The notes: generated by a model not told the origin, from the sequence alone. DNA of 52,432 nucleotides from Escherichia coli (GCF_003334315.1 NZ_QOWR01000029.1), one strand, 5' to 3'. Positions 36,822 through 49,211 are shown, counted from the first letter of the stretch. A program made the numbers and translations.

Positions 36822-36850
36822 ATCATCCTCCACAAAATGATAAAGGCTTT

Positions 36851-36869
36851 AATAATGATTATCATTTAT
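36851..36869. promoter_or_regulatory. Fur box in the entC / fepB divergent control region
   Basis: aataatgattatcatttat closely matches the Fur consensus GATAATGATAATCATTATC; located about 30 bp upstream of the entC start. Coordinates approximate. Confidence 0.7.
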
Positions 36870-37028
36870 ATTTTCGGTCGCTAACCTAAAAGCAAACGCG
36901 CACTATGTCAACTCTTGAGGTAACGCAATCTGCAACTCGGGGTTGCATCTGGTTGTGGTTACAATGAAAATGAGAAGCATTATTGATGGATTCGCATAAG
37001 CGCAATGTGATGTCCTGCGCCGTTCTGC

Positions 37029-37130
37029 CCCCTCTCCCTTCCAGGGTGAGGGCTGGGGTGAGGGTTAATGTTCGCACCAGTGCTGGCTGTTCCCCTCACC
37101 CTAACCCTCTCCCCAAAGGGGCGAGGGGAC
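37029..37130. repeat. GC-rich intergenic repeat (copy 2, composite): partial forward copy plus full inverted copy, in the fepB 5' region
   Basis: cccctcaccctaaccctctccccaaaggggcgaggggac (about 37092-37130) is the reverse complement of copy 1 with 2-3 mismatches; the preceding ggggtgagggtt block gives a long inverted repeat. Confidence 0.6.
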
Positions 37131-37195
37131 GGATTGTGCGCTTTGTCGAATTTGTCATTACGCCCTTAACCTTATTAATAACAGGAAGCTGATTT

Positions 37196-38152
37196 GTGAG
37201 ACTCGCCCCGCTCTACCGCGACGCCCTTCTATTAACAGGACTTTTGCTTTCAGGAATAGCCGCAGTTCAGGCCGCTGACTGGCCGCGTCAGATTACTGAC
37301 AGCCGTGGCACACATACACTGGAAAGCCAGCCGCAGCGTATTGTTTCCACCAGCGTCACCCTGACCGGCTCACTGCTGGCGATTGATGCTCCGGTGATCG
37401 CCAGCGGCGCGACCACGCCGAATAACCGCGTCGCGGATGACCAGGGCTTTTTACGCCAGTGGAGCAAGGTGGCGAAAGAACGCAAACTGCAACGGCTCTA
37501 TATCGGCGAACCGAGCGCCGAAGCCGTTGCCGCGCAAATGCCGGATCTGATTTTAATTAGCGCAACCGGCGGGGATTCGGCGCTGGCACTGTATGATCAG
37601 CTTTCCACCATCGCCCCGACATTAATCATCAATTACGACGACAAAAGCTGGCAGTCGCTGTTAACGCAACTTGGCGAAATTACCGGGCATGAGAAACAAG
37701 CGGCAGAGCGGATTGCGCAGTTTGATAAGCAACTGGCGGCGGCGAAAGAGCAAATCAAATTACCGCCGCAGCCGGTCACTGCCATTGTCTATACTGCCGC
37801 TGCACACAGTGCCAATCTCTGGACGCCAGAATCAGCACAAGGGCAGATGCTGGAACAACTCGGCTTTACGCTGGCGAAGTTACCCGCAGGGTTAAATGCC
37901 AGCCAAAGTCAGGGTAAACGCCATGACATCATTCAGCTTGGTGGGGAAAATCTGGCTGCAGGGTTAAATGGCGAGTCACTATTCCTGTTCGCCGGTGATC
38001 AGAAAGATGCCGATGCTATTTATGCTAATCCGCTGCTCGCGCACCTGCCTGCAGTACAAAACAAGCAGGTTTATGCGCTGGGAACCGAGACGTTCCGTCT
38101 GGATTACTACAGCGCCATGCAAGTGCAGGATAGGCTTAAGGCGCTGTTTTAA
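37196..38152 (+). CDS. fepB: periplasmic ferric-enterobactin binding protein
   Basis: 318-aa [29 protein letters not shown]... recognised as FepB. Confidence 0.95.
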
Positions 38153-38155
38153 GCA

Positions 38156-47549: not shown

Positions 47550-47764
47550 TGTGCCTCCTGCAACTGGGTAAAATTCGTCGGTGTCAGAGTACGCCAGTGG
47601 GCTTCCAGCCACTGCTGGCAGGACGCCTGTGACTGCGGCTGACACACAATGTCCCAGCCTGCCGGTAAGACGCATTGTTGCGGCCACAGACTGAATTGCC
47701 CCTGCGCATTGCGCAATATGTAAAACGCTCCCTGCGGATCATCGAAGGGATTACTGAATGCCAT
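47546..47764 (-). CDS. ybdZ: MbtH-like protein
   Basis: 72-aa product MAFSNPFDDPQGAFYILRNAQGQFSLWPQQ... recognised as YbdZ; stop overlaps the entF start (ATGA). Confidence 0.92.
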   Translation of the reverse strand: MAFSNPFDDPQGAFYILRNAQGQFSLWPQQCVLPAGWDIVCQPQSQASCQQWLEAHWRTLTPTNFTQLQEAQ

Positions 47765-47766
47765 AT

Positions 47767-48969
47767 TCAACTCCTGTCATGGAAAAGTGGTTGCCAGAGG
47801 TCGATTAGCCCCTGCATCAAGCCACCGCGCCAACAAAGCGCATCATGTCCGCCGTCAACCTGACGCCAGAAAATGGATTCTTTTATGGGGTGTAATTGCG
47901 CATACAGCGCCTGATTGGCCCGCATGATCATCGGCTCGCGAATACCCGCTTCCAGCACAATGCGCAGACCTTCGGCGCTAACTTCACCAGCTTTTAGCTT
48001 TTCAAGTAACACGCCCTCTTGCTGCCCGCCCCGATGCGGCCACCAGTACGATCCTGACTGGCTTAATACACAGCCAAAGCGTTCAGGCCAGTGCAGTCCG
48101 GCATACAGCGCGGAAAGCCCACCAAAACTCTGCCCGGCAACCACGGTGCGATCGGCACGATCGCTAAAAGGGGCAATAGCTTTCACCAGGGGTAATAACT
48201 CTTGCTGTACTGCGAGCCAGAAATCCGCATTACACGGCAGTTCGTGGGCGCGGTGCGTGGTGTCGATAGCGTCGATCAACACATACACGGCGGGAGGAAG
48301 TTGCTGACGATGGGTCAGCGAAGTCAGCACTGGCCAGACGGGCATACTTTGCGCCCAAAATTCGCCATCGAGCAAAACTGCCAGCGGGCGTTCTTCTGCT
48401 GTTGCATCGCCGGTGGTAAAAATCCATACACGCCGTGACTTTTTCAACCGTTCACTTTTCCAGATAATTTCTTTGGCAGGTATTTCTGGCGCTTGCGGAC
48501 AATCCCATCCCGGTTGCAGAGGCGCTTGCGGCATTTCGAGTGCAGAAACAGCGTGCCCTCGCCCGCCTTTCCAGCTTTGTAGGTTCAGCGGATCGGCTAT
48601 CGCCTGGGGTAATAGTTTTCGCCAGCCTTCGCGCAATTCGAGGCGATCGGGGGATGGTACAGAAAAAATGTCATCGCGTTCGGTGGGAATAAAGCAGTAG
48701 CTGCCGCGCCAGTTGGCATTGAGTTGTGTCGTCCACTGCCAGACGTTAGTGCCTGCAATTCGCTGCATCGACTGGGGCTGGCTGTTCTGATGGTGATCGG
48801 TCACACCAGTGATGTAGACCCATACGCGCTTTATCGTCGAGTATTCTTCAGAACCTTGGGGATCACGCCACCAGAAAGTGACCTCAAACATTTCGTCATT
48901 CAGACGCTGCCATTCCGGGCCATGTTTCGACTGCCACCAGCTCTCACTTCCTACTTTTAACGCCGTCAC
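47767..48969 (-). CDS. fes: enterochelin (ferric enterobactin) esterase
   Basis: 400-aa ORF recognised as Fes. The exact start is uncertain; some annotations use a shorter product. Confidence 0.9.
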   Translation of the reverse strand: MTALKVGSESWWQSKHGPEWQRLNDEMFEVTFWWRDPQGSEEYSTIKRVWVYITGVTDHHQNSQPQSMQRIAGTNVWQWTTQLNANWRGSYCFIPTERDDIFSVPSPDRLELREGWRKLLPQAIADPLNLQSWKGGRGHAVSALEMPQAPLQPGWDCPQAPEIPAKEIIWKSERLKKSRRVWIFTTGDATAEERPLAVLLDGEFWAQSMPVWPVLTSLTHRQQLPPAVYVLIDAIDTTHRAHELPCNADFWLAVQQELLPLVKAIAPFSDRADRTVVAGQSFGGLSALYAGLHWPERFGCVLSQSGSYWWPHRGGQQEGVLLEKLKAGEVSAEGLRIVLEAGIREPMIMRANQALYAQLHPIKESIFWRQVDGGHDALCWRGGLMQGLIDLWQPLFHDRS

Positions 48970-49021
48970 ACCATAACCCCATGTTTACTGTGCAATTTTT
49001 CATTGATTGCAGAAATATATT

Positions 49022-49040
49022 GATAATATTATTGATAACT
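49022..49040. promoter_or_regulatory. Fur box in the fes / fepA divergent control region
   Basis: tgataatattattgataac matches the Fur consensus GATAATGATAATCATTATC. Coordinates approximate. Confidence 0.65.
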
Positions 49041-49211
49041 ATTTGCATTTGCAATAGCGTAATGGCGCGCCGTGGGAAGCGCGGACATTAATTAACCAAC
49101 TGCACTGCGTGTCTTTCAGGATCAAAGGTTTTCGCGGTAGCGGGATGCGTCGTGTTGATGACGACCATGCCCGACAGTTGCAATTCGTGGCAAAAATGCA
49201 GGAATAAAACA

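Follow-up and report, generated by a model that had tools for sequence, protein, structure and literature searches.

Four predicted Fur operators in three divergent spacers of an Escherichia coli enterobactin locus

The window analysed here, a stretch of 52,432 bp of Escherichia coli DNA (GCF_003334315.1, NZ_QOWR01000029.1; coordinates count from its first letter), very probably carries the canonical E. coli enterobactin locus, in which four operators of the ferric uptake regulator Fur, distributed over three spacers, would repress six transcription units (entCEBAH, fepB, entS, fepDGC, fes-ybdZ-entF and fepA-entD), with fepE insulated from the fes-ybdZ-entF transcript and only weakly coupled to Fur. 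Characterisation of the Fur-controlled bidirectional enterobactin regions in K-12 goes back to about 1988-2001, and the Fur operators of this locus are textbook biology. The analysis contributes identity to K-12, significance of the motifs, conservation across genera, covariation in a hairpin and integrity of the reading frames. The three divergent spacers, entC-fepB (374 bp), entS-fepD (110 bp) and fes-fepA (242 bp), are 100% identical to those of K-12 MG1655, as are the entF-fepE (215 bp) and fepA-entD (174 bp) gaps, and the enterobactin cluster of MG1655 (b0583-b0597) equals that of the window in order, gene lengths and intergenic control regions.

An earlier note, made from the sequence alone, had quoted one Fur-box-like string from each bidirectional spacer, and each string does occur exactly once, in its own spacer: at 36851-36869 (entC/fepB), 39480-39504 (entS/fepD) and 49021-49039 (fes/fepA). 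With 4 or fewer mismatches allowed, the classical 19-bp palindromic Fur consensus GATAATGATAATCATTATC is found at four positions in the 52 kb, all of them in the entC/fepB or entS/fepD spacers. A Fur matrix was derived de novo by expectation maximization, with no consensus supplied, from 14 K-12 Fur sites outside the ent locus (fhuA, fur, fiu, tonB, sufA, cirA, mntH, exbB, bfd, sodA, fecA, fecI and two sites of fhuF) that had been footprinted or confirmed by electrophoretic mobility shift assay (EMSA), with coordinates from Chen 2007 (PMC2189734). The motif recovered, AAATGATAATGATTATCAT, is the core of the Fur box, and the training sites score 10.0-26.1 bits (median 22.1) when left out one at a time. 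In a matrix scan of the whole window, the check that the earlier note had proposed, the three ent spacers give the three best non-overlapping matches, at 36849-36867 (23.8 bits), 49032-49050 (19.8 bits) and 39484-39502 (16.1 bits), and rank first to third among the 27 intergenic regions; positions of at least 10 bits number 14, with 3.5 expected. The quoted fes/fepA string itself scores 8.6 bits, and the stronger site adjoins it; read as hexamers (GATAAT-ATTATT-GATAAC), the string is the best GATAAT array in the window, with 16 of 18 matches and 0.005 such arrays expected per shuffle. Within each operator the sites found by the matrix are spaced 6 or 12 bp apart, the same pattern of clustering that Chen 2007 (PMC2189734) describes for binding of multiple Fur dimers.

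Candidate Fur boxes upstream of fepE (best score 6.0 bits), upstream of entD (3.5 bits) and at entH/cstA (7.6 bits) were rejected. A Fur-box-like sequence of 12.6 bits also lies inside the coding region of cstA (31292-31310), with scores of 19-21 bits at the orthologous position in Siccibacter, Buttiauxella and others; a conserved hydrophobic peptide motif may have given rise to it incidentally.

Since the Fur consensus is rich in A and T, as are the spacers (53-69% AT), the strings might be chance matches in AT-rich promoter DNA that Fur does not bind, and the fepB (11.7 bits) and entS/fepD (16.1 bits) sites do fall within or near the range of best scores obtained from 200 dinucleotide shuffles of the window (mean 13.5 bits, sd 2.2, maximum 21.0). 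However, equally AT-rich intergenic regions elsewhere in the window reach at most 9.7 bits, the score of the runner-up to the three spacers, and shuffles of the individual spacers rarely attain the observed scores: of 2000 for each spacer, 0, 20 and 1 did so. The chance-match explanation is further contradicted by the binding data and by the phylogenetic comparison that follow.

That Fur binds physically, and that expression depends on Fur, is established by the literature for K-12 and other strains. Deoxyribonuclease I (DNase I) footprints of Fur have been obtained in K-12 at all four operators (Chen 2007 Table 3, PMC2189734); shifted by +777 to current K-12 numbering and mapped onto the identical sequence of the window, they enclose all three quoted strings and the matrix hits. 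The same paper quotes two Fur dimers with a dissociation constant of 8.6 nM for fepB, and three dimers with 3.0 nM for entS. Peaks of Fur in chromatin immunoprecipitation with exonuclease digestion (ChIP-exo) of strains MG1655, W3110 and W (Gao 2023 supplement, PMC10164565) correspond to 36842-36886 (entC), 36957-36995 (fepB), 39464-39494 (entS/fepD) and 49006-49037 (fes/fepA); the quoted strings and the matrix hits fall under these peaks as well. The ent and fep genes belong to the core Fur regulon of nine strains and change by 2.5-10 log2 units in fur mutants (Gao 2023, PMC10164565), and Fur- or iron-dependent expression of the flanking genes is documented in K-12 and eight other strains (PMC10164565) and in CFT073 (Banerjee 2020). 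The central claim of the earlier note, that Fur operators in the three divergent spacers control the ent, fep and fes units, is therefore borne out to the extent that the spacers are identical to K-12 spacers that are footprinted and positive by ChIP-exo. Three further MG1655 peaks (P16, P12 and P19; PMC10164565) map to places with no motif: 37099-37124 in an insertion in the fepB leader, 49168-49201 just 5' of the fepA start, and 36647-36678 within entC.

For comparison among relatives, 80 loci from approximately 25 enterobacterial genera were fetched with FepG as the query and a flank of 10 kb on each side, and orthologues were located by tblastn; loci in which tblastn gave a wrong fepD start, with "spacers" of approximately 1100 bp, were left out of the alignments, and their length was capped when the background was computed. 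Fur sites scoring 15 bits or more occur in 70 of 73 orthologous entC-fepB spacers, 75 of 75 entS-fepD spacers and 61 of 61 fes-fepA spacers, and clusters of such sites occur at 35.3 per 10 kb in the spacers versus 0.10 elsewhere in the loci, an enrichment of approximately 340-fold. In alignments of the non-Escherichia sequences the footprints are the best-conserved blocks of the spacers: mean identity to the base in the window is 0.95 inside and 0.48 outside the fepA-fes footprint, and 0.82 inside and 0.21 outside the entC operator, while the core of the fepB operator is almost invariant between genera. Sites thus kept over approximately 25 genera while the flanking spacer diverges, on sequences that in K-12 are footprinted (PMC2189734) and ChIP-positive (PMC10164565), can hardly be fortuitous; the footprints, the ChIP-exo data, the conservation and the shuffles together already refute the chance-match explanation.

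The earlier note was right that there are three control regions, but it missed one operator: the entC/fepB spacer contains two, making four in all. The entC operator (footprint 36827-36875) has its strongest site at 36849-36867, and a separate footprint at 36960-36990 marks the fepB operator, the core of which, GAAAATGAGAAGCATTATT at 36966-36984, has 4 mismatches to the 19-bp consensus. A putative entC promoter on the minus strand (36883-36911) consists of a -35 hexamer TTGACA (36911-36906), a 17-bp spacer and a -10 hexamer TAGGTT (36888-36883), a position that would place the entC operator at about +1 to +49. On the plus strand a putative fepB promoter (36943-36971) combines TTGCAT (36943-36948) with GAAAAT (36966-36971) across a 17-bp spacer, and the fepB operator covers this -10 hexamer and the predicted start site. 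In the entS/fepD spacer the footprint spans 39467-39535, with a site cluster at 39476-39506 in which sites of 16.1, 11.9 and 11.5 bits follow a 6-bp register; it extends into the opening codons of fepD, which starts at 39517. The fes/fepA operator (footprint 49014-49061) comprises the strongest matrix site at 49032-49050 and the hexamer array at 49021-49039. Here the putative fepA promoter, found by a promoter scan on the plus strand (TTGATT at 49003-49008, an 18-bp spacer, TATTAT at 49027-49032), and the putative fes promoter, read from the sequence of the minus strand (TTGCAA at 49054-49049, a 17-bp spacer, TAATAT at 49031-49026), are divergent and overlap (49003-49054), and their -10 hexamers overlap each other within the operator. 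The hexamers assigned to entC and fepB coincide with conserved blocks in an alignment of 68 species, and the fes/fepA promoter block is likewise kept between genera; sigma-70-like hexamers from conserved blocks can be fitted so that each operator would lie over a -10 or -35 hexamer or a start site, as in classical occlusion. The operators of fhuA, cirA, fiu, fecA, fhuF, sodA and other iron-uptake promoters share with those of the window the TGATAATnATTATCA core, overlap in a 3- or 6-bp register and overlap with the promoter. Unlike those promoters, the ent locus has one operator serving two divergent promoters at fes/fepA and at entS/fepD; entC and fepB have an operator each, approximately 115 bp apart. 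Immediately 3' of the fes/fepA operator, in the fepA leader, a GC-rich block (GGCGCGCCGTGGGAAGCGCGG, 49062-49085) is conserved across genera beyond the footprint and could form a short hairpin.

According to the mechanism proposed, Fe2+-Fur dimers would, under iron sufficiency, occupy arrays of overlapping GATAAT-type hexamers in a 6-bp register, and the bound arrays would cover the -10, -35 or start sites of the facing promoters and exclude RNA polymerase; upon iron starvation Fur would be released, and synthesis, export, uptake and hydrolysis of enterobactin would be derepressed together. The fepE gene, located between entF and fepC, would be shielded from the fes-ybdZ-entF transcript by a conserved terminator and transcribed from a promoter of its own that has no Fur box, with a small read-through (approximately 1-2% in K-12) linking it weakly to Fur.

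Several points weigh against this interpretation. The promoter hexamers were assigned from consensus and conservation, and their exact positions, the occlusion at each promoter, and the binding, regulation and function in the present strain are what we infer, the last of these from control DNA identical to that of K-12. The fepB operator scores above the minimum of the left-out training sites (10.0 bits), but in 52 kb a score of 11.7 bits would not by itself be distinct from chance; the operator is supported instead by its footprint, the ChIP-exo peaks and its conservation. Missense changes that the closest relatives lack, at residues invariant in EntF and FepB, could compromise the pathway. 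Finally, fur mutants of K-12 induce fepE 10-fold in MG1655 and 55-fold in W3110 (log2 3.3 and 5.8; PMC10164565), and because of this induction the insulation of fepE is judged to be incomplete.

The earlier note had described fepE (wzz-fepE; 42319-43452, minus strand), which encodes a regulator of O-antigen chain length and is not an enterobactin gene, as independently transcribed behind a terminator; the terminator is there and a separate promoter is supported, but the induction in fur mutants means that the independence is strong rather than absolute. A terminator scan and folding identify an intrinsic terminator on the minus strand at 43608-43652, beginning 16 nt past the entF stop codon, with a 13-bp stem (starting at 43652 and ending at 43620), a 7-nt loop and the U-rich sequence TTTTTTATTTG (-13.4 kcal/mol, z = -2.6). 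The stem is AT-rich, with 3 G-C pairs, and is followed by six U residues. In 13 species all 13 pairs of the stem are kept, 6 of them by compensatory double changes, with almost no broken pairs, and the hairpin is retained in the genera that carry fepE. The U-tract reads UUUUUUAUUUG in the window and K-12 (43608-43622, minus strand) and UUUAUCAUUU in O157:H7 and other lineages, being longest in the window/K-12 allele; the entF-fepE gap as a whole is unusually variable within E. coli (80-100% identity across genomes).

Downstream of this hairpin, a fepE promoter on the minus strand (43503-43531) is predicted from a -35 hexamer TTCGGA, a 17-bp spacer and an extended -10 element TGGTAAAGT, in a block conserved in Escherichia, Citrobacter, Salmonella and Enterobacter. 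In Salmonella Typhimurium this block contains the mapped start site of fepE and a box that RcsB protects from DNase, TCGGATAATTCTGA at -36 to -22 (Huesa 2021, PMC7913699). The wzz(fepE) region of Salmonella enterica shares with the window the position of the gene, the hairpin after entF and the promoter block with its extended -10. The Salmonella-type RcsB box reads TCGGATAATTCTGA or TCGGATAATTCTCA, whereas its orthologue in the window and K-12 (43530-43517, minus strand) reads TCGGATAATTATCA and fails the consensus at the central C; the consensus TN(G/A)GAN4TC(T/C)NA has no match on either strand of the entF-fepE gap. An A takes the place of the central C in the window, K-12 and MB7671, and the C is kept in O157:H7, other E. 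coli lineages, E. albertii and Salmonella. Replacement of that base abolished RcsB binding in a Salmonella EMSA (PMC7913699).

These observations bear on a somewhat unlikely alternative, that fepE is the last gene of a fes-ybdZ-entF-fepE operon, its mRNA arising mainly by read-through of a hairpin that is a mere attenuator or stability element. Such an operon is given in the tables of Huja 2014 and Banerjee 2020, and the substitution at that base of the RcsB box in the window/K-12 allele agrees with it, as does the entF-fepE gap itself, which has no Fur site (best matrix score 6.0 bits) to account otherwise for the Fur dependence of fepE. Moreover, fepE is nearly silent in wild-type MG1655 and W3110 (0.4-0.8 units) and rises together with entF in their fur mutants (PMC10164565). 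Yet in those mutants fepE RNA amounts to just 0.75% (MG1655) and 1.7% (W3110) of entF RNA, that is, 60-130-fold less in the published RNA sequencing data (PMC10164565), so little of the entF signal crosses the junction. The maintenance of the hairpin by compensatory changes ahead of a U-tract, and the conserved extended -10 promoter with a start site mapped in Salmonella (PMC7913699), also speak against a simple operon, and the transcription unit called in W3110 and W comprises fes, ybdZ and entF and leaves fepE out (Gao 2023, PMC10164565). In extraintestinal pathogenic E. coli, iron-limited serum induces a response of fes, ybdZ and entF and not of fepE, which responds instead to complement (Huja 2014), and in CFT073 the values are 388 for fes, 158 for ybdZ and 294 for entF versus 4.9 for fepE (Banerjee 2020 supplement, where the meaning of the column is our interpretation). 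The gene itself is present in just 25 of the 80 related ent loci, mainly in Escherichia, Citrobacter, Salmonella, Pseudocitrobacter and a few Enterobacter, and missing from the other 55, in which entF and fepC are directly convergent or parted by unrelated DNA. In our reading the entF terminator is genuine and works efficiently, fepE is transcribed from a promoter of its own, and read-through of approximately 1-2% transmits Fur control to it; in the K-12-type allele under laboratory conditions, fepE RNA may stem mainly from such read-through.

A megablast comparison of positions 30000-52432 with 5,426 complete E. coli genomes found matches in all of them, with 80% or more of the query covered in 5,411; the window represents E. 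coli chromosome. Strain HS30-1 is the best match; its reported identity of "100.0%" is rounded and was rejected as the true value, the two sequences being separated by 17 substitutions and 2 indels (single-base, at 453 and 29689). Gene positions were taken from the annotations of HS30-1 and K-12 MG1655 and a gene-by-gene comparison with K-12, and the order of ent and fep genes is that of MG1655 in reversed orientation. From left to right, cstA (29707-31812, minus strand) is followed by entH, entA, entB, entE and entC (31993-36821, minus strand), the entCEBAH biosynthesis operon; by fepB (37196-38152, plus strand, GTG start), encoding the periplasmic ferric-enterobactin binding protein; by entS (38156-39406, minus strand), encoding the enterobactin exporter and identical to K-12; and by fepD, fepG and fepC (39517-42322, plus strand), encoding the inner-membrane ATP-binding cassette importer and likewise identical to K-12. 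Beyond fepE lie entF, ybdZ and fes (43668-48969, minus strand), which form the fes-ybdZ-entF operon, and then fepA (49212-51452, plus strand) and entD (51627-52247, plus strand), which form the fepA-entD operon. The full complement and synteny of ent, fep and fes genes claimed in the earlier note are thus present. All 16 ent and fep genes, those of entCEBAH included, equal their K-12 counterparts in length and start codon, contain no internal stop and differ by 0-3 amino acids each; a check of each against K-12 revealed no frameshift. Relatedness to K-12 is mosaic, with just seven substitutions in approximately 15 kb from fepB to entD, whereas the entC-to-cstA part diverges by approximately 1-4.6% (0.8-4.6% in nucleotides for its genes), which suggests a recombination breakpoint near entC/fepB.

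The strain is likely to be enterobactin-proficient, as the earlier note had expected, but proficiency is not assured because of missense changes at residues that are invariant in other genera. At four positions in the ent region the window departs from HS30-1 and K-12 alike, in each case by a nonsynonymous substitution: FepB N9D (37220), FepB L311Q (38127), FepE P267L (42653) and EntF P1059L (44374). Each may be either a recent mutation or a sequencing error. An impaired pathway in a structurally intact locus, with EntF P1059L and FepB L311Q leaving the strain less than fully proficient, is quite unlikely. It would fit the wholly nonsynonymous set, the conservation in other genera of FepB L311 (71 of 71), EntF P1059 (62 of 63) and FepE P267 (21 of 21), and the finding that the exact 61-mers around 38127 and 44374 occur in 0 of the 5,426 complete genomes. 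On the other side, no frameshift, stop or deletion affects the ent and fep genes, L311Q, P1059L and the others could be sequencing errors, and four nonsynonymous changes out of four do not, by our estimate, differ significantly from the approximately 70-75% expected of new mutations. Neither EntF P1059 nor FepB L311 is known to be a catalytic or ligand-binding residue, which also counts against impairment.

Between the fepB operator and fepB, the window carries a nested palindromic, GC-rich insertion of 186 bp (36983-37168, plus strand) in the fepB 5' leader, abutting the operator. The leader folds as a single long hairpin (-95 kcal/mol, z = -6.0), and the inner part of the insertion belongs to a dispersed repeat family that occurs, in the median, at 16 places in an E. 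coli genome. E. albertii, Salmonella and Citrobacter lack the insertion, and E. whittamii has part of it. A full-length entC-fepB spacer is present in 2755 of the 5426 complete E. coli genomes, or about half; both alternative E. coli alleles that were examined (BEN2908 and O145:H28) have a spacer of 188 bp, which is also the approximate length in most other genera, and over its first 161 bp the spacer shows an identity of 99% or more in nearly all E. coli genomes. The 188-bp allele of other E. coli and Enterobacteriaceae has in common with the window both Fur operators and both promoters and differs from it in having no insertion, which the window and K-12 carry. That the insertion is a lineage-specific element of post-transcriptional control is an unlikely, tentative proposal; a literature search for a description of structure in the fepB leader returned nothing relevant, and Rfam recognises no RNA family in the three divergent spacers or the entF-fepE gap.

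Elsewhere in the ent region, the fepA-entD gap (51453-51626, 174 bp) contains classic repetitive extragenic palindromes GCCGGATGCGGCGTGAACGCCTTATCCGGCCTAC, folds with -72.9 kcal/mol (z = -5.7), and includes the only Rfam match of the region, ES036 (CssrF) at 51527-51568. The level of entD RNA in fur mutants of K-12 is 6-10% of that of fepA RNA (PMC10164565). Outside the locus, Rfam identifies the rnk leader (17586-17694, 124.9 bits), a cspA-type 5' untranslated region at cspE (4158-4600, 124.1 bits) and STnc70 upstream of ahpC (22907-23000, 42.7 bits). At its left end (1-1281) the window starts within an IS1A element, directly adjoined by a ybeF pseudogene truncated at its 5' end.

As a case of known biology, the locus serves as a positive control, indicating that a reader given the sequence alone can recognise Fur operators correctly. 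The picture is refined by the count of four operators, the leaky insulation of fepE, the polymorphic repeat in the fepB leader and the caveat that the missense changes place on proficiency. If the leader insertion does act as a control element, its hairpin could alter the stability or translation of fepB mRNA, and hence the ratio of binding protein to transporter between lineages of E. coli.

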